A program made the position numbers and the translations under genes. A model generated the notes under the pieces. That model saw nothing but the letters and a program-made list of their open reading frames with translations, made no database searches and was not told where the DNA came from. This document shows, one piece after another, positions 50,198 to 64,000 of a stretch of DNA of 64,000 bases (its first letter is position 1; the number at the start of each line of letters is the position of its first letter). Origin of the DNA: Escherichia coli (GTDB taxonomy: Bacteria; Pseudomonadota; Gammaproteobacteria; Enterobacterales; Enterobacteriaceae); NCBI RefSeq assembly GCF_016026235.1, contig NZ_CP065613.1; one strand, 5' to 3'.

Positions 50198-51571
<1,374 letters not shown>

Positions 51572-52213
51572 TCACAACTCCGGGGTTAAATGAGCAAGAA
51601 TTTGTTTTGCCTGAGTGGTCAGGCGATTACGAGAAAACATCAATTGCAGACGTCCGCCGCCGACCTGGTGCCAGAGCACGGCGGCGCGAATGCCTGCCAG
51701 CAGGGTTGCGCGAACTTTCGCCTGCACTTGTGGGCTTTGCAGTACAGCAGGGGAACCGGTGACCTGAATGCGCGGGCCAAGCGGGCTAATCACATCAACA
51801 TAGATAGCAGCCATCGCGCTCATCAGCGTTTCGGACTGTAAATCGAAGTGTTCGAGCTGGCGTTGCAGGCCGTTGATCCGGTTGCCCAGAGTGTCGAGCG
51901 CACCTTTCGCTGAGGAGAGTTTGCGCTCAAGCACCATCAGACTGAGTGTGTAGCGGGTTAATTCGGCGTTTAAGCCCTGGCGACTGCTGGCATTGAGCAC
52001 GCCGAGCAGGGTTTCCAGCCCGACGCGCAGGTTGGCTTCGCTACCGCCAAAAACCGCCAGCGTCGAGCTGGGGTTCATATCAATAATACTGTTGAGTGAG
52101 ACGTGTAGCGCATCGGCATCACAATGCCCCTGGTGAGCGAGTTGTTGCACCAGGCGTGCCGACTGACAAATACCGGCCAGGGCGAGGGTGATGTCATAGT
52201 AATTCTTTGCCAC
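51572..52213 (-). CDS. hflD: High-frequency lysogenization protein HflD
   Basis: Start set at a GTG ([17 protein letters not shown]) to give about 213 aa. Confidence 0.88.
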
Positions 52214-52248
52214 GTTCACTGCTTCCTTGTTTTAAGTAAAGATAATAA

Positions 52249-53870
<1,622 letters not shown>

Positions 53871-53879
53871 TTTGCATCC

Positions 53880-54533
53880 TTAATCTGTCACTTCTCGCCA
53901 TTCGCCATTAGCAAGATTATCCAAAGAGTAATCACCCATCGCATAGCGAATCAGTCGCAGCGTGGGGAAACCAACATGGGCGGTCATGCGGCGCACCTGG
54001 CGATTACGTCCTTCATATAAGGTGATCTTCAGCCAGCTGGTGGGAATACTTTTGCGTTCACGAATTGGTGGATTCCGCGGCCATAACCACGCAGGTTCGT
54101 CAACCAGCTCCGCGCCGGCGGGCAGGGTAGGGCCATCATTTAAGGTTACGCCATTGCGCAAGGCTTCAAGTGCGTCTTGTGTGGGAATACCTTCCACCTG
54201 CACATAATAGATTTTTCCGGTGCGTTTACCCGGCTGGGTTAAACGCGCCTGCAACGCGCCGTTATTGGTCAGCACCAGTAACCCTTCGCTATCGCGGTCA
54301 AGACGACCTGCTGCATAAACGCCCTGAACCGGGATGAATTCTTTTAATGTTTTGCGTCCGGCTTCATCGGTGAACTGCGGAAGAACATCGTAGGGTTTAT
54401 TGAACAGGATCACACGCGTGGGCTGGTTTTCAGGTTTACGCCTGGTAGAACGTTGCGAGCTGAATCGCTTAACCTGGTGATTTCTAAAAGAAGTTTTTTG
54501 CATGGTATTTTCAGAGATTATGAATTGCCGCAT
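53880..54533 (-). CDS. rluE: 23S rRNA pseudouridine synthase RluE
   Basis: 217-aa RsuA-family ORF ([17 protein letters not shown]). Confidence 0.9.
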
Positions 54534-54705
54534 TATAGCCTAATAACGCGCATCTTTCATGACGGCAAACAATAGGGTAGTATTGACAAGCCAATTACAA
54601 ATCATTAACAAAAAAATTGCTCTAAAGCATCCGTATCGCAGGACGCAAACGCATATGCAACGTGGTGGCAGACGAGCAAACCAGTAGCGCTCGAAGGAGA
54701 GGTGA

Positions 54706-55956
54706 ATGGAAAGTAAAGTAGTTGTTCCGGCACAAGGCAAGAAGATCACCCTGCAAAACGGCAAACTCAACGTTCCTGAAAATCCGATTATCCCTTACAT
54801 TGAAGGTGATGGAATCGGTGTAGATGTAACCCCAGCCATGCTGAAAGTGGTCGATGCTGCAGTCGAGAAAGCCTATAAAGGTGAGCGTAAAATCTCCTGG
54901 ATGGAAATTTACACCGGTGAAAAATCCACACAGGTTTATGGTCAGGACGTCTGGTTGCCTGCTGAAACTCTTGATCTGATTCGTGAATATCGCGTTGCTA
55001 TTAAAGGCCCGCTGACCACTCCGGTTGGTGGCGGTATTCGTTCTCTCAACGTTGCCCTGCGCCAGGAACTGGATCTCTACATCTGCCTGCGTCCGGTACG
55101 TTACTATCAGGGCACCCCAAGCCCGGTTAAACACCCTGAACTGACCGATATGGTTATCTTCCGTGAAAACTCGGAAGACATTTATGCAGGTATCGAATGG
55201 AAAGCTGACTCTGCCGACGCTGAGAAAGTGATTAAATTCCTGCGTGAAGAGATGGGCGTGAAGAAAATTCGCTTCCCGGAACATTGTGGTATCGGTATTA
55301 AGCCGTGTTCAGAAGAAGGCACTAAACGTCTGGTTCGTGCAGCGATCGAATACGCAATTGCTAACGATCGTGACTCTGTGACTCTGGTACACAAAGGCAA
55401 TATCATGAAGTTCACCGAAGGCGCGTTTAAAGACTGGGGCTACCAGCTTGCGCGTGAAGAGTTTGGCGGTGAACCGATCGACGGTGGCCCGTGGCTGAAA
55501 GTCAAAAACCCGAACACCGGCAAAGAGATCGTCATTAAAGACGTGATCGCTGATGCGTTCCTGCAACAGATCCTGCTGCGTCCGGCTGAATATGATGTTA
55601 TCGCCTGTATGAACCTGAACGGTGACTACATTTCTGACGCCCTGGCAGCGCAGGTTGGCGGTATCGGTATCGCCCCTGGCGCAAACATCGGTGACGAATG
55701 CGCCCTGTTTGAAGCTACCCACGGTACTGCGCCGAAATATGCCGGTCAGGACAAAGTTAACCCAGGTTCTATTATTCTCTCTGCTGAGATGATGTTACGC
55801 CACATGGGTTGGACCGAAGCCGCAGACCTGATTGTTAAAGGTATGGAAGGCGCAATCAATGCGAAGACCGTAACCTATGACTTCGAACGTCTGATGGAAG
55901 GCGCTAAACTGCTGAAATGTTCAGAGTTTGGTGATGCGATCATCAAAAATATGTAA
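54706..55956 (+). CDS. icd: Isocitrate dehydrogenase (NADP)
   Basis: 416-aa [43 protein letters not shown]; full length and uninterrupted. Confidence 0.97.
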
Positions 55957-55978
55957 ACACTACATGTGTTAAATATTT

Positions 55979-56010
55979 AAACGGGCGTATAACACGCCCG
56001 TTGTTTTATT
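55979..56010 (+). terminator. Intrinsic terminator after icd
   Basis: Stem aaacgggcg/cgcccgtt with loop tataaca, followed by gttttattt. Confidence 0.7.
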
Positions 56011-56309
56011 TATGTGGATATTATTAATAGCATATCGAGCATATTTATATAAAACCCATTACTTGAGCCCATATGGGCATATTTTTATAATACAACTCTT
56101 ATGCAAACATTTATTTGTTATTTCGCTTTCTCCTGGAGGACACTCTTGACTGCTTTTGAGTAAACTCCATAAATTCTTGTTGAATGGTGCAATGTTATAA
56201 ATAGTTATAGGATATTCTTTATCCTTAAGGATAATACCAGGCTTAACCAGTGTAGGTAATGCTGCCAACTTACTGATTTAGTGTATGATGGTGATTTTAA
56301 GGTGCTTGC

Positions 56310-56585
56310 GTGGCTTCCATTTCCATCAGATGTCCTTCCTGCTCCGCTACTGAAGGCGTGGTGCGTAACGGCAAAAGCACTGCCGGACATCAGCGCTATC
56401 TCTGCTCTCATTGCCGTAAAACATGGCAACTACAGTTCACTTACACCGCCTCTCAGCCCGGTACGCACCAGAAAATCATTGATATGGCCATGAATGGCGT
56501 CGGATGTCGCGCCAGTGCACGCATTATGGGCGTTGGCCTCAACACGGTTTTACGTCACTTAAAAAACTCAGGCCGCAGTCGGTAA
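56310..56585 (+). CDS. insA: IS1 InsA (transposition inhibitor / N-terminal part of the transposase)
   Basis: 91-aa [43 protein letters not shown]... with a zinc-finger Cys cluster; the A6C slippery site TTAAAAAAC lies at 56559-56567. Confidence 0.93.
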
Positions 56586-57007
56586 CCTCGCGCATACAAC
56601 CGGGCAGTGATGTGATTGTCTGCGCTGAAATGGACGAACAGTGGGGCTACGTCGGTGCTAAATCACGTCAGCGCTGGCTGTTTTACGCGTATGACAGGAT
56701 ACGGAGGACGGTTGTGGCGCACGTCTTCGGTGAACGCACTCTGGCCACACTGGAGCGTCTTCTGAGCCTGCTGTCGGCCTTTGAGGTCGTGGTATGGATG
56801 ACGGATGGCTGGCCGCTGTATGAATCACGCCTGAAGGGAAAGCTGCACGTTATCAGCAAGCGTTACACTCAGCGCATTGAGCGACATAATCTGAATCTGA
56901 GACAACATCTGGCAAGGCTGGGACGGAAGTCACTGTCGTTCTCAAAATCGGTGGAGCTGCATGACAAGGTCATCGGGCATTATCTGAACATAAAACACTA
57001 TCAGTAA
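56504..57007 (+). CDS. insB: IS1 InsB reading frame, expressed as the InsAB' transposase by -1 frameshifting
   Basis: 167-aa -1-frame ORF overlapping the insA 3' end and containing the DDE-like catalytic region. Confidence 0.9.
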
Positions 57008-57854
57008 GTTGGAGTCATTACCACCAGTGTAAATATACTTCCAGGAGGAAGAAATATAGTAGATTGATACCAGATAATCATTTTCATATCACCCCATATG
57101 GCTGAAAAAGATATGCCGCATGTAGGTTGAATTACCGTGTCAATTACTACCCACTTCATTTGTTATGTCTTATCCCACGGTATTTAATATAGTTCATTTG
57201 GATGTTCATTTCTTTATTTTGCATATGAGTATATTACCCCTTCAAAAAATAAATTAATTAAAACGATTGCTTATATAAAACAAAATTTAAAGCAAGGAAT
57301 CTCAATGGATGTTAAACAAAATGAGATTTAGTGAAAACAATAAATTATTCACTTCGTTTTAGATTTGTTTAGCTATAATGTTATACATTCAAATGACTGA
57401 CCATCCTGTAATTAAAACATAGCCTTTATGCTACTTTGTGCCAATTTGCTAAACATTATGGTTGCCTTTTTATATAACGATAATAATGAATATAAGCATG
57501 ACATGAGAATAAGGTTTCAATTTTTGAGTTATATAGGAAAGGTTTAACCTGTTCCTGGCTAAAATACATATAACTGGATGATGACTAAACCAAAACACAT
57601 GTGCGTTAAGTATTGAAACGGGCGTATGGCACGCCCGTTGTTTTTATAAATATATTAAACGTTATGAAATAACGTATAGAAAGTCAAGTGATCACATTTC
57701 AAATATCAATTTGATAGTATTGGCCTGGTGATTATTTATGGGTAGCAATAAAAGGACAGTATTTATCATCCATAGGGATAGTCTCTGTACTTTTATTCCC
57801 ATTATGCTAATGCCTTACTGAATTATGAAGCATTTCTTAAGCATCCAACTTTAG

Positions 57855-58259
57855 CTAGATTAATGGTTTATTATTTTCTACATCTTCAATATATAAAAGC
57901 GTATTATCAATGGCGTAGTAACTGCGTTTGTTATGATTAACATCAGTAACCCAACGGAAAACGCCCGCGTCTGCCAGTGTTGAACAGTATTCCCGAAATG
58001 TAGATTTTCCGCAAATATGAAGCAATGCGGCCTCTTTTATTTTAGCAGGGTTCTTGGTCGTACTAACTTTTAACAGGTTCCTGGTTCCTCTTAATAACAA
58101 AACCGTGTCATCGTGAGTAATAATTCTGATGTTATCCGTAGCCAGATAATAAATGTAATGTGCAATACGGTGATGTTTTAATTCTGAATAAAACCAGGAG
58201 AAGTTTTGCTCTTTTCTCACTTGCTCAAACATCTTTTGAAAAACAACGACCTGATCCAT
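57855..58259 (-). CDS. ycgX: DUF1398-family protein YcgX
   Basis: 134-aa ORF MDQVVVFQKMFEQVRKEQNFSWFYSELKHH flanked by AT-rich DNA, upstream of bluR; identity from recalled gene order. Confidence 0.7.
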   Translation of the reverse strand: MDQVVVFQKMFEQVRKEQNFSWFYSELKHHRIAHYIYYLATDNIRIITHDDTVLLLRGTRNLLKVSTTKNPAKIKEAALLHICGKSTFREYCSTLADAGVFRWVTDVNHNKRSYYAIDNTLLYIEDVENNKPLI

Positions 58260-58479
58260 CAGGATAATAACCTCTTGTTAGTTGTGAGACTGCGTAGTGT
58301 GCACGATCGGTTTTACCACTTCAATCTGGTCTGTTCTTTGGCTGTGATATGTACAGAGTGTGATAGAGGGATTACCTGAATTCTCCCGGTGAGCATTTTG
58401 CAACGGACCAGCTCCGGTACAAATGCTGTTGTGGGTTCAGATTATAACATTCTGTCTAAGGGGCAGGATAAAGGTGAAA

Positions 58480-59211
58480 TTAGGGGGCATGAAAGATGAC
58501 TTTATAACCTTGCTCACCCCAGTGTTGTAAAAGTTCATTTTGCCTTCTCGTTGGTGCCATGCCTGTCCAGACAATCAATGTTTGCGTCGGGAACAGTTCT
58601 GGGCGCGGTGATTCAATGGGATCAGCAAGAACAGAAATGTGCCATCCTGACAATGATAAACGCCATGCTTCCAGCCACAATCGTGCTCTCTCTTCAACAT
58701 TCCATGCCATCAGAATGGCTTCTTTACCGGGCTTACGGCGCATTTCGAAAAGCGAGGCTGCTGCGTATTCAATTAGTGCGCCGTCAAACATACTGCTCAT
58801 AATGCGGGAGGTGTTGTGATCAAGCACGAGACGCTGGCGAACAGGAAGGTAAACATGATTAATCAATTGATCTACTGGGTACTCTCGACCCAGTGAAATA
58901 ATTCTCGCGCGTAGTTTGGCAGGATTAGCCATACGAAGAATTGACATCATCTCTTCTTGCAGGCGGCTCCAGTCATCTTCCGTATCCTGGCTGGTGGTTT
59001 CCAGTAATGCTTTAACTTTGCCTACAGGGACGCCATTACTTATCCAACGCTTGATCTCTTCGATGCGTTGTATGTCTTCTTCATCAAAGAGTCGGTGTCC
59101 GCCTTCACTGCGCTGTGGTTTTAACAAACCGTAGCGGCGTTGCCAGGCCCGGAGAGTGACAGGATTAATCCCGCAACGTTCAGCAACATCACCAATGCTG
59201 TAATAAGCCAC
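58480..59211 (-). CDS. bluR: MerR-family transcriptional repressor BluR (YcgE)
   Basis: 243-aa ORF with an N-terminal MerR HTH ([32 protein letters not shown]). Confidence 0.88.
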
Positions 59212-59405
59212 AATTCCTCCTTGCGGTCATAAATCTCCGTCGCCTGTACACGACCCAATAATACTTTGTACAATATACGCTAAAATTGTACAAAGTATAA
59301 ATAAGATTTCAGCTAAATTGGATGAAACATTATTTTTAATGTGGATTAAATTAAAGCATAACGTATTCATTTTCACGATGATTTACTGAAATCATGTGCT
59401 GAAAA

Positions 59406-60617
59406 TTATTTTTTTTCTGGCCACGCAACTGAAGGGATACCATTCAATTTAGCTTTAGCAAACAGATCCCCCTGAAACATCTCAATTCCTGCGGATTCAA
59501 GCCACATCCACTCTTCTGGTGTTGCCACGCCCATAGCAGAGACTTGAATTTCAAGTGATGTACAGCATTTTATGATCGCCTGAATAATTGCCTGCCGTGG
59601 TCCGCTTTTATGAACATTGGTAATCAATTCCTGACTGATTTTAATTCTGTCAGGCTGGAAGCGTGACAGGAGTAACAAACCAGCAAAACCTGCGCCAAAA
59701 TGATCAATTGCTACACTGATACCGGCAGCCTTTAGCGATTTAACCGCTTCGGCAAACTCATCAAACCGAGATATGACTTCACTTTCAGTAAATTCAACGA
59801 TGATTTGTTCAGGCACCAGAGCATTGGCCTTTATTTCATCAAGTAAAAAAGAGACTGCGTCAGGCTCGTTAACCAGGGTCATAGGTAATAGATTGATTGA
59901 AATCATTTTATCACCGAGCTCAAGTGCGTGTGCCATCGCGAATGCAAGCGCCTTACTTTTAAGATCCGCTGTGTAGATTTCCCCGTCTTTACGCTGCCCA
60001 ACCGCTATAGCTGACGGGCTGTCTTCATTTTTTTGCACAATGGCTTCAAAAGCGATTATCCGCCGCGATAAGGGATCAACAATAGGATGAAAGGCAAAGT
60101 GGTCGTTTATAGTTGGTGAAAGGGTACAGGAATCAAGTTCTTTATCAGATCTGTCAGCGATAAAAAGCCAGGAGTCTTCAGCAGGAATCTCGAAATAGGT
60201 TGATTGTTCGGTTGCAAGGACAAAAGTACGAAAAAATTGTAGCGCTCTGTCATCATAAGTTAGCTGAAATTTTGATGTGCCTTTGTCGAATACGGCCTGT
60301 AAAACGTCATCTCGCTCGTGTAGGCGTAAATCAAATAATTCCATTCCCGCTTTGCCAAAACGGCGAGCAGGCGCGTAATCGCACAGCAGCTCAACAATAT
60401 TATAGTGCCGTGGATCCTGGCATATAGCCCGATATATCATTTTAACCTGTTCTTCCGGACCTTCCAGAAGCTGGAAAAAATGAGAACCATTAAACAGTAA
60501 GATCCCTGTTACGTCAGACTGCATGTTCCTGCGATTTGCAATCGAAACCATTTCTTCGATTTTTTTGACAGGTTCGTCGTCACGTATATGGCTACGATAA
60601 ATAAGGGTGGTAAGCAT
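59406..60617 (-). CDS. bluF: Blue-light sensor BluF (YcgF): BLUF domain plus degenerate EAL domain
   Basis: Start set at MLTTLIYRSHIRDD to give 403 aa; BLUF N-terminal domain (VTGILLFNGSHFFQLLEGP) and an EAL-like C-terminus; the track ORF is 57 codons longer. Confidence 0.88.
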   Translation of the reverse strand: MLTTLIYRSHIRDDEPVKKIEEMVSIANRRNMQSDVTGILLFNGSHFFQLLEGPEEQVKMIYRAICQDPRHYNIVELLCDYAPARRFGKAGMELFDLRLHERDDVLQAVFDKGTSKFQLTYDDRALQFFRTFVLATEQSTYFEIPAEDSWLFIADRSDKELDSCTLSPTINDHFAFHPIVDPLSRRIIAFEAIVQKNEDSPSAIAVGQRKDGEIYTADLKSKALAFAMAHALELGDKMISINLLPMTLVNEPDAVSFLLDEIKANALVPEQIIVEFTESEVISRFDEFAEAVKSLKAAGISVAIDHFGAGFAGLLLLSRFQPDRIKISQELITNVHKSGPRQAIIQAIIKCCTSLEIQVSAMGVATPEEWMWLESAGIEMFQGDLFAKAKLNGIPSVAWPEKK

Positions 60618-60930
60618 TAACTGTCCAGGGTAATGGGAGTGGCGAGAGTAAGACGGTAACAGACATATCTTCCGGTGTCTTTCTTTTAATACCAAAACAT
60701 AACTGTTTCTTTGCATTGATAGAAAATGGAAAAAGTTGAACACGAGTTGGCGAAAAATCTTGTATAGTTTGTCAGTTAAATGATGCAATATGTTTTATCA
60801 TAACGTATTGTTTTATATGTATTAGCACTAATTGCAAAAAATTAATTTATCATTCTGTACACATATTTCGTACAAGTTTGCTATTGTTACCTCACTTAAC
60901 ATTGATTAACATTTTTAACAGAGGCGTAGC

Positions 60931-61167
60931 ATGCATCAAAATTCAGTGACTTTAGATTCTGCGGGAGCAATCACTCGTTACTTTGCAAAAGCTAACTTGC
61001 CTACTCAGCAGGAAACTCTCGGGGAAATTGTGACTGAGATTTTGAAAGATGGACGTAATCTGAGTCGAAAGTCGCTTTGTGCCAAACTTCTTTGCCGACT
61101 GGAACAAGCGACAGGGGAAGAGGAACAGAAACATTATAATGCACTAATTGGGTTGCTTTTTGAATAA
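60931..61167 (+). CDS. ycgZ: Small protein YcgZ (connector of the bluR-controlled operon)
   Basis: 78-aa ORF divergent from bluF, first gene of a four-gene small-protein operon. Confidence 0.8.
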   Translation: MHQNSVTLDSAGAITRYFAKANLPTQQETLGEIVTEILKDGRNLSRKSLCAKLLCRLEQATGEEEQKHYNALIGLLFE

Positions 61168-61209
61168 TGCAACAGCCTGATTATTTAACAGGTTAGCTAT
61201 GAAGTCGTT

Positions 61210-61482
61210 ATGAAGACATCTGATAATGAACGTATAAAATATGAAATTACTGGCCAGGCGGTGCTCCAGATACTGCGCATGAAGATAAATTTTTCGGTGC
61301 AGACTCTTATTAAGCAATTACTCGTAATGAAATCGGCTGAGGAAAATGCTTTCCGACGAGATTTAATTGACAGCATAATTCGTGATTTTAGCAACAGTGA
61401 TACAGGAGGGCCAAACCGAAGAACAGCGATAGCTGACAATAAAAGTATGTTCAATGGTAAGAAAATAAACAGAATACATTAA
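61210..61482 (+). CDS. ymgA: Small protein YmgA
   Basis: 90-aa ORF 42 bp after ycgZ. Confidence 0.8.
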   Translation: MKTSDNERIKYEITGQAVLQILRMKINFSVQTLIKQLLVMKSAEENAFRRDLIDSIIRDFSNSDTGGPNRRTAIADNKSMFNGKKINRIH

Positions 61483-61510
61483 AATTTCATAAGTAAGATG
61501 AGAGGTTACC

Positions 61511-61777
61511 ATGCTTGAAGATACTACAATTCATAATGCAATAACTGATAAAGCGTTATCAAGTTACTTTCGCAGTTCGGGTAATTTGTTAGAAGAAGAG
61601 TCAGCAGTGTTAGGGCAGGCTGTGACTAATTTAATGCTTTCAGGCGATAATGTTAATAATAAAAATATTATCTTAAGTCTGATACACTCCCTGGAAACAA
61701 CAAGTGATATTCTCAAAGCTGATGTGATCAGAAAAACACTGGAAATCGTGTTGCGATACACAGCGGATGACATGTAA
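61511..61777 (+). CDS. ariR: Regulator of acid resistance and biofilm AriR (YmgB)
   Basis: 88-aa [34 protein letters not shown]. Confidence 0.8.
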
Positions 61778-61889
61778 CTTTTAATTATTAAGTATAAGTT
61801 TATAGAAAACTCATTCATCTTATTTTTGTCTGTCGCTTTAGACTATACACAGCATAATTTTATTGGGTTAATATTTCTACGAGGCTGAC

Positions 61890-62138
61890 ATGAATAATTC
61901 AATCCCAGAGAGATTTATTTTTCAATGTGCTTTGTTTAAAAATCTCGAGAGGGAGGTGTTCATGACGCATGGGTATGTTGATAGTCATATTATTGATCAG
62001 GCTTTACGCTTGCGTTTAAAAGATGAAACTAGTGTGATTCTTTCTGATCTCTATCTGCAAATCTTGCAGTACATTGAAATGCATAAGACTACACTAACGG
62101 ATATCATTATTAATGACAGGGAATCCGTGCTCTCTTAG
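61890..62138 (+). CDS. ymgC: Small protein YmgC
   Basis: 82-aa ORF, last gene of the ycgZ-ymgA-ariR-ymgC cluster. Confidence 0.75.
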   Translation: MNNSIPERFIFQCALFKNLEREVFMTHGYVDSHIIDQALRLRLKDETSVILSDLYLQILQYIEMHKTTLTDIIINDRESVLS

Positions 62139-62473
62139 AACTTGAGTAAGGTTATAGAATAAACATCAGCTGTATCATCATGCTGGTGCAAAGTGAGCAT
62201 TTCAGGCGTTATGCTTTCTTAATATATCCGCAATATCAGGGGGCAAACAGGAATGGAGAGCGCTCGTTTTCCATTCTTGACGCCTGATATCCCACCTAAA
62301 TTGTTTAATTCTGCCTACATTGTGCTCAATAATTAATAGGTTAGATGAAGATGGAGAAAATTTTATCTTCGGCGTGGATATTTCTTATGCTCTCTACCAT
62401 GCTCTCTGTAGACGCCAGCGCGAGCGAATGAACGTCATTTTCATGTATTAAACCCTTTGTTCGGGACAAGCGA

Positions 62474-63997
62474 ATGCGCAATACACTCATACCCATCCTC
62501 GTTGCGATATGCTTGTTTATTACCGGTGTCGCTATTTTGAACATCCAGCTCTGGTATTCCGCAAAAGCAGAGTACCTGGCGGGAGCAAGATATGCCGCCA
62601 ACAATATCAATCATATACTTGAAGAAGCGTCACAGGCGACTCAAACAGCGGTTAACATTGCCGGGAAGGAATGCGACCTCGAGGAGCAATATCAGCTTGG
62701 CACTGAAGCAGCTCTGAAACCTCACCTGCGCACAATCATCATTCTCAAACAGGGAATAGTCTGGTGTACATCCCTGCCTGGGAATCGGGTCCTGCTGTCT
62801 CGTATTCCTGTTGTCCCGGACAGTAATTTGCTGTTGGCTCCGGCAATCGACACCGTTAATAGATTACCTATTCTGCTCTATCAGAGCCAATTTGCAGATA
62901 CGCGCATTTTGGTTACGATAAGTGATCAGCATATTCGCGGGGCGCTTAATGTACCCTTGAAAGGGGTAAGGTATGTATTACGCGTGGCGGATGACATTAT
63001 TGGACCTACGGGTGATGTGATGACGCTTAATGGACATTATCCCTATGCCGAGAAGGTTCACTCCACAAAATATCATTTCACTATTATCTTTAACCCGCCA
63101 CCACTCTTTAGCTTCTACAGACTTATCGATAAAGGCTTTGGGATTTTGATATTTATTCTGTTAATCGCCTGCGCCGCTGCCTTCCTGCTAGATAGGTATT
63201 TCAATAAAAGCGCAACGCCTGAAGAGATCCTGCGGCGGGCTATAAATAATGGGGAGATCGTCCCTTTTTACCAACCAGTGGTGAATGGTCGGGAAGGGAC
63301 ATTGCGGGGAGTTGAGGTGTTAGCCCGCTGGAAACAACCTCACGGTGGATATATTTCACCCGCGGCATTTATTCCACTTGCTGAAAAATCCGGATTAATC
63401 GTTCCGCTTACGCAAAGCCTGATGAATCAGGTTGCCAGACAGATGAACGCTATCGCGAGTAAATTGCCGGAAGGTTTTCATATTGGAATTAATTTTAGCG
63501 CCTCGCATATTATTTCGCCGACGTTTGTCGACGAGTGCTTAAATTACCGTGACAGTTTTACCCGCCGCGATTTAAACCTCGTTCTGGAAGTTACCGAGCG
63601 TGAGCCATTAAATGTTGATGAAAGTCTGGTTCAGCGGTTGAACATTCTGCATGAAAATGGTTTTGTCATCGCGCTGGATGATTTCGGTACTGGCTACTCA
63701 GGGCTTTCTTATCTGCATGACCTGCATATTGATTATATCAAAATTGATCACAGTTTCGTTGGCCGCGTCAACGCAGACCCAGAATCAACCCGAATTCTGG
63801 ATTGTGTATTGGATATGGCGCGTAAACTTTCGATCAGTATCGTCGCTGAAGGTGTCGAAACGAAAGAACAACTTGATTATCTGAACCAAAATAATATCAC
63901 ATTTCAGCAGGGTTATTATTTCTATAAACCTGTTACATACATCGACCTGGTCAAAATTATCCTTTCTAAACCGAAGGTGAAGGTTGTGGTTGAGTGA
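62474..63997 (+). CDS. pdeG: Cyclic-di-GMP phosphodiesterase PdeG (YcgG): CSS-motif sensor plus EAL domain
   Basis: 507-aa ORF with an N-terminal transmembrane helix, periplasmic Cys-containing sensor domain, second transmembrane helix and a C-terminal EAL domain (EVLARW...DDFGTGYS). Confidence 0.88.
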   Translation: MRNTLIPILVAICLFITGVAILNIQLWYSAKAEYLAGARYAANNINHILEEASQATQTAVNIAGKECDLEEQYQLGTEAALKPHLRTIIILKQGIVWCTSLPGNRVLLSRIPVVPDSNLLLAPAIDTVNRLPILLYQSQFADTRILVTISDQHIRGALNVPLKGVRYVLRVADDIIGPTGDVMTLNGHYPYAEKVHSTKYHFTIIFNPPPLFSFYRLIDKGFGILIFILLIACAAAFLLDRYFNKSATPEEILRRAINNGEIVPFYQPVVNGREGTLRGVEVLARWKQPHGGYISPAAFIPLAEKSGLIVPLTQSLMNQVARQMNAIASKLPEGFHIGINFSASHIISPTFVDECLNYRDSFTRRDLNLVLEVTEREPLNVDESLVQRLNILHENGFVIALDDFGTGYSGLSYLHDLHIDYIKIDHSFVGRVNADPESTRILDCVLDMARKLSISIVAEGVETKEQLDYLNQNNITFQQGYYFYKPVTYIDLVKIILSKPKVKVVVE

Positions 63998-64000
63998 AAA

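Follow-up and report, generated by a model that had tools for sequence, protein, structure and literature searches.

The window, i.e. the whole 64-kb stretch of Escherichia coli DNA analysed here, carries a full-length 768-bp IS1 element on the plus strand at positions 56255-57022, exactly the boundaries given in an initial annotation. The element lies within iraM, a minus-strand gene that it splits into two parts. Searching the entire 64 kb for a second IS1 found none, making 56255-57022 the sole copy, and no internal repeats above the BLAST threshold were found in the window. The features of the locus are:

56059..56254, minus strand: 3' part of iraM.
56246..56254: left 9-bp target-site duplication, ACCAGTGTA, abutting the left inverted repeat (IRL).
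56255..57022, plus strand: complete IS1 of the IS1F-type isoform, 99.35% identical to IS1F and 91.15% identical to IS1A of E. coli K-12.
56255..56277, plus strand: IRL, 23 bp, GGTAATGCTGCCAACTTACTGAT, differing from the IRL of IS1A at position 4 only (A, not G).
56262..56289, plus strand: promoter-like CTGCCA and TATGAT separated by a 16-nt spacer within IRL, a match from a consensus scan only.
56310..56585, plus strand: insA with a GTG start, encoding a 91-aa zinc-ribbon and helix-turn-helix (HTH) repressor/DNA-binding protein (from the open reading frame and Pfam).
56504..57007, plus strand: insB' frame, open over 167 codons and overlapping insA (from the open reading frame).
56561..56567, plus strand: A6C motif (AAAAAAC) of the programmed -1 frameshift, in the insA/insB' overlap.
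57000..57022, minus strand: right inverted repeat (IRR), 23 bp, GGTAATGACTCCAACTTACTGAT read inward, differing from the IRR of IS1A at position 19 (C, not T).
57023..57031: right 9-bp target-site duplication, ACCAGTGTA, abutting IRR, a perfect direct repeat of the left copy.
57023..57159, minus strand: 5' part of iraM, with its start codon at 57159.

The element has the characteristics of the IS1 family: a length of about 768 bp, imperfect ends of about 23 bp starting with GGT, a 9-bp target-site duplication, insA and insB', the A6C motif and the transposase domains. A conceptual -1 shift at the A6C motif gave a stop-free InsAB' of 232 residues (56310-57007; the fusion was made in silico and frameshifting is predicted). 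The N-terminal part of InsAB' matched the zinc ribbon PF03811 (E = 1.5e-19) and the HTH domain PF12759 (E = 1.8e-27), while the protein matched DDE_Tnp_IS1 (PF03400) over positions 1-131 of 131 (E = 2.4e-74) and the NCBIfam IS1 equivalog NF033558 with 245 bits, the cut-off being 100. The insA promoter of IS1 is known to be located in IRL, and the promoter-like site at 56262-56289 coincides with its position.

Translation of the disrupted iraM proceeds into IRR and stops at 57001-57003, resulting in a 52-aa product that consists of 45-46 native residues followed by VMTPTY. Removal in silico of IS1 together with one copy of ACCAGTGTA restored the exact 324-bp iraM open reading frame of E. coli FDAARGOS_943, in which the gene is annotated as encoding 'anti-adapter protein IraM' (107 aa, minus strand) with the insertion point inside it. 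The reconstructed empty site of 1,398 bp is present in FDAARGOS_943 in one piece at 100% identity, with ACCAGTGTA occurring once. A second empty site was found in GCA_901482675.2, 99.93% identical over 9.2 kb, again carrying ACCAGTGTA once, and here the overlap between the two aligned segments is precisely the 9 bp of the duplication. The insertion was absent from all ten genomes encoding an identical Icd protein, and no contiguous match to the junction was found among 5,426 complete E. coli genomes. An exact search of species-representative genomes with the 40-nt left junction returned 0 matches, and no protein on record was an exact match to the 52-aa product of the IraM-IS1 junction. Given that relatives at 99.9% identity lack the insertion, we concluded that it is, as judged from these alignments and as far as the searched collections show, recent and strain-specific.

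The sequences flanking IS1 are 30-32% G+C while the window as a whole is 50%, consistent with the preference of IS1 for AT-rich targets. IS1 was also detected close to iraM, at other positions, in 34 of the 5,426 complete E. coli genomes (IS1A or IS1B where the PGAP label is specific). All 34 match the junction query in two pieces at 92-95% identity and none shares the insertion of the window. The AT-rich DNA downstream of icd is a target that IS1 has hit repeatedly. In E. coli U1, tandem copies of IS1B adjoin an iraM that is only 252 bp long. The first gene after the IS1 in KTa005 and PSJ-32-1 is ymgJ or a truncated pdeG, an arrangement that suggests IS1-adjacent deletions.

The 45 kb from 18,992 to 64,000 align colinearly with E. 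coli GF3-3, IS1 being the only interruption, with the gene order ptsG ... mfd, lolCDE, potABCD, phoPQ, purB, icd, iraM, bluR, bluF, ycgZ-ymgABC. No e14-like prophage was found at the 3' end of icd in the window, and in several other strains the interval from icd to iraM holds an IS200C copy. Identity to GF3-3 is 97.05% to the right of IS1 (57023-64000) and 98.9% to its left. The 25-kb core spanning mfd-phoPQ-purB-icd (31000-55900) reaches at best 99.0% identity among the 5,426 complete genomes, and the icd-iraM-bluR segment (50706-60735) is matched at 99.9% identity by both FDAARGOS_943 and GCA_901482675.2. This pattern points to a recombination mosaic around icd, in an Escherichia/Shigella-clade lineage that would have no close representative among the 5,426 genomes. 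A Shigella host would be in line with the lack of a close E. coli match and with the 100%-identical IS1 copies on Shigella plasmids; the window, however, is E. coli-like chromosome, with a single insertion over 45 kb and no internal repeats.

To place the element among IS1 isoforms, we compared it position by position with the RefSeq-labelled IS1A and IS1F of K-12. Of the 768 positions of the window copy, 68 (8.85%) differ from IS1A and 5 from IS1F. The proposal in the initial annotation that this IS1 is a divergent isoform was therefore borne out, and the full identity to canonical IS1A or IS1R that would have contradicted it was not found, identity to IS1A being 91.15%. IS1A and IS1E, the 'consensus' IS1 of K-12, have the same 768-bp architecture as the window copy, with the same promoter hexamers in IRL, A6C motif, recoding region and domains. 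IS1R of plasmid R100, the classical reference, is near-identical to both. The promoter hexamers are the same in the A (IS1R-like) and F types because the differences between the types sit at position 4 and from position 40 onward. Five of the 91 residues of InsA are changed relative to IS1A (V4I, S7R, D15E, T69S and I80V), exactly the substitutions in the motifs quoted in the initial annotation. InsAB' carries 14 amino-acid differences in all, these 5 in the InsA part and 9 clustered at residues 130-162. The initial annotation had also taken ends starting with GGTAATG, instead of GGTGATG, as a mark of the isoform. Both ends of the window copy do start with GGTAATG, but the right end of IS1A already reads GGTAATG, so that only the left end, with a G to A change at position 4 from the GGTGATG of IS1A, is distinctive. 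As a result of the differences at IRL position 4 and IRR position 19, 20 of 23 positions agree between IRL and IRR in the window copy, compared with 18 of 23 in IS1A.

The 62 differences from IS1A that fall in coding frames comprise 48 synonymous and 14 non-synonymous changes, indicating purifying selection, and a further 6 lie in the 55 bp of 5' non-coding sequence. The A and F types show no difference across IS1 positions 294-344, a stretch that includes the A6C motif and the insA stop codon. The ratio of 48 to 14 together with the invariant recoding region indicates that both lineages have been kept functional, with no decay. IS1 matches in E. coli records show a bimodal distribution of identity, being 99% or above in 3,926 records and between 90 and 95% in 4,358. 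Among the non-consensus types of K-12, types II and III carry 9 mismatches to IS1A, whereas IS1F carries 73 (90.5% identity) (PMC12428005). On sequence grounds, the window copy is a member of the known, discrete IS1F-type class, and its divergence is real and not chance variation. The isoform is long known and very common, and the element itself holds no novelty.

The sequence of the window element recurs at 100% identity in thousands of E. coli records. Its copies occupy many loci, adjoining RHS elements, hchA, yjfZ and sugar transporter genes as well as on plasmids, indicating recent mobility of exactly this sequence. To count the two types, we designed a 97-nt diagnostic probe (IS1 positions 30-126) that covers 14 differences between A and F types. 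Since the isoforms share no 24-mer within it, megablast with the probe retrieves the matching type only. The F-type isoform is, we assume, related to the 'iso-IS1' elements of Shigella. These have historically gone by the names IS1 nu-xi / IS1N, IS1SD and IS1S in ISfinder. S. boydii, S. dysenteriae, S. flexneri and S. sonnei all have plasmids with copies 100% identical to the window element, and Shigella genome papers follow 'IS1/IS1N' as the predominant insertion sequence (PMC1550401). In the literature searched for the isoform names IS1N, IS1S, IS1SD and IS1X2, the names are used without sequence relationships. Another isoform of the IS1 family, IS1X2, is frequent in clinical E. coli (PMC10569738). 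The elements that PGAP labels IS1X2 either match the whole A-type probe or align with just half of the F-type probe, so that their isoform appears to be mosaic or at least different from that of the window copy.

The closest relative with a name is IS1F of K-12 (NC_000913.3, 4518472-4519239), which is equal in length to the window copy, identical at 763 of 768 bases, and the 'type IV' IS1 of Umeda and Ohtsubo according to the citation of that work in PMC12428005. The two share the InsA signature I4, R7, E15, S69 and V80 as well as both inverted repeats (IRL, GGTAATG...; IRR, ...CTTACTGAT), with no difference in the outermost 40 bases at either end. K-12 IS1F is annotated in RefSeq as an insB pseudogene and, as the sole F-type element tested experimentally, was essentially immobile on its own (PMC12428005), which would favor the view that the window copy is likewise a dead relic whose divergence is accumulated damage. 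We consider this view very unlikely. The five positions that set the two elements apart are private changes of the K-12 copy, namely H34P and T52K in InsA, a TGG to TGA stop and a serine to leucine change in insB', and one more substitution. The window copy has none of them: its insA, insB' and A6C motif are intact and all three transposase domains are full length. Because the K-12 copy carries a private nonsense codon and InsA changes, its immobility is not transferable to the window copy. The predominance of synonymous changes and the invariant recoding region described above also speak against damage, as do the presence of the same sequence at numerous loci across thousands of genomes and a recent insertion that close relatives lack. 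The sites differ as well: K-12 IS1F resides in the fec-yjhU region, whereas the window copy sits in iraM with a clean 9-bp target duplication. K-12 IS1F is a mutated derivative, while the window sequence is the common, consensus-like form of the lineage. At fecIR-yjhU, the internal stop of K-12 IS1F recurs in the unrelated E. coli TUM3755; this copy has the appearance of an ancient insertion, dead and passed on vertically, unlike the intact mobile F-type copies elsewhere. PGAP places its explicit label, 'IS1-like element IS1F family', only on the pseudogene copy at the fec locus, and designates intact 100%-identical copies 'IS1 family transposase; programmed frameshift'. That the window copy could instead be a recombinant of A and F types, and not a pure F-type element, has a precedent in the mosaic IS1 forms that do exist, such as the IS1X2-labelled elements. 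However, its 68 differences from IS1A are evenly spread from position 4 to position 750, the longest gap without a difference being about 52 bp, and its 5 differences from IS1F are isolated point changes. We therefore give a recombinant origin almost no weight, and with no A-type block along the 768 bp it was rejected.

The initial annotation had further proposed that the isoform can indicate whether an IS1 came from a chromosome or a plasmid. In its strict form this would make F-type the chromosomal and A-type (IS1R-like) the plasmid-borne IS1, and would trace the window copy to a chromosomal donor. We surveyed 5,426 complete E. coli genomes (28.0 Gb, ~5.16 Mb per genome) with the two probes; place counts are lower bounds, the A type being undercounted more than the F type. 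F-type IS1 was detected at a minimum of 12,415 places in 4,238 genomes (78%; median 2), of which, among the matches listed, 11,689 were chromosomal and 726 (5.8%) on plasmids. A-type IS1 was detected at a minimum of 60,086 places in 4,315 genomes (79.5%; median 9), with 47,406 chromosomal and 12,680 plasmid places (21.1%) among the matches listed. The idea of a source marker thus holds as a skew at the level of the population, but it fails for a single copy. The F-type probe matched 2,368 plasmid records in PLSDB, with Klebsiella (1,511), Escherichia (498) and Shigella (109) together with Citrobacter, Enterobacter and Salmonella, and 1,551 of the 2,368 plasmids are predicted to be conjugative; the A-type probe matched at least 5,000 records. 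Full-length, 100%-identical copies of the window element exist on chromosomes as well as on Shigella plasmids of virulence-plasmid size and on E. coli plasmids. Because the F type occurs on that many plasmids and its identical copies on both kinds of replicon, the source of any one copy is not assignable. Moreover, by rough inference, plasmid DNA can account for no more than a few per cent of such genomes, so that a plasmid share of 5.8% corresponds to an approximately even spread of the F type per base pair. By the same rough inference the A type is enriched on plasmids, while the F type is spread roughly in proportion to DNA. The probe, in addition, reports on positions 30-126 alone and mosaic elements labelled IS1X2 match either probe. 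A chromosomal origin of the window copy deduced from its isoform is accordingly improbable.

Together, the data make it highly probable that a structurally intact IS1F-type IS1 arrived in iraM by ordinary transposition, duplicating 9 bp of the target. The element would have transposed into the AT-rich coding sequence of iraM. InsA, expressed from the promoter in IRL, would bind the ends and act as a repressor, while a rare -1 ribosomal frameshift at the A6C motif would give rise to the InsAB' DDE transposase, acting on the two 23-bp ends. The ~9% divergence from IS1A would then represent an old, separately maintained IS1 lineage that has not decayed. The window copy itself is predicted to be transpositionally competent.

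How the F type relates in function to the A type is informed by work on the K-12 elements. The laboratory that reported the immobility of K-12 IS1F showed that A-type transposase supplied in trans mobilizes IS1F better than it does the rest of the non-consensus elements (44% of 48 sequenced insertions). It ascribed this effect to the more similar ends of IS1F, and noted that IS1F has distinct IRL and IRR (PMC12903888). Since A-type transposase uses F-type ends in vivo, the two isoforms are not orthogonal systems. A more far-reaching reading would regard the F type as a functionally distinct lineage, in which the more symmetrical ends (20 versus 18 of 23 positions) are the better substrate, the roughly replicon-neutral spread, next to the plasmid-enriched A type, reflects a different propagation strategy, the lineage is the active one in the present host, and the hit in iraM is one of several recurrent and possibly selected IS1 insertions that lower RpoS stabilization. 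We regard this combination as rather unlikely and favor ordinary transposition of an intact F-type element.

The main value of the analysis lies in correct annotation, i.e. the element is an intact F-type IS1 and not IS1A, and beyond this the isoform has little importance. The assignment guards against treating the window copy like the dead IS1F of K-12 and against reading a plasmid or chromosomal donor from the isoform, and the survey figures provide a modest but usable picture of the distribution of the two IS1 classes in E. coli. The most biologically meaningful point of the locus is the interruption of iraM, an ordinary case of gene inactivation by an insertion sequence. IraM is an anti-adaptor that blocks RssB-mediated delivery of sigma-S to ClpXP under magnesium starvation (PMC10844676). 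With IraM presumably lost, RpoS would no longer be shielded from RssB/ClpXP by this branch during Mg2+ starvation. The inactivation of iraM suggests that the strain is probably unable to stabilize RpoS via PhoPQ/IraM when magnesium is limiting.
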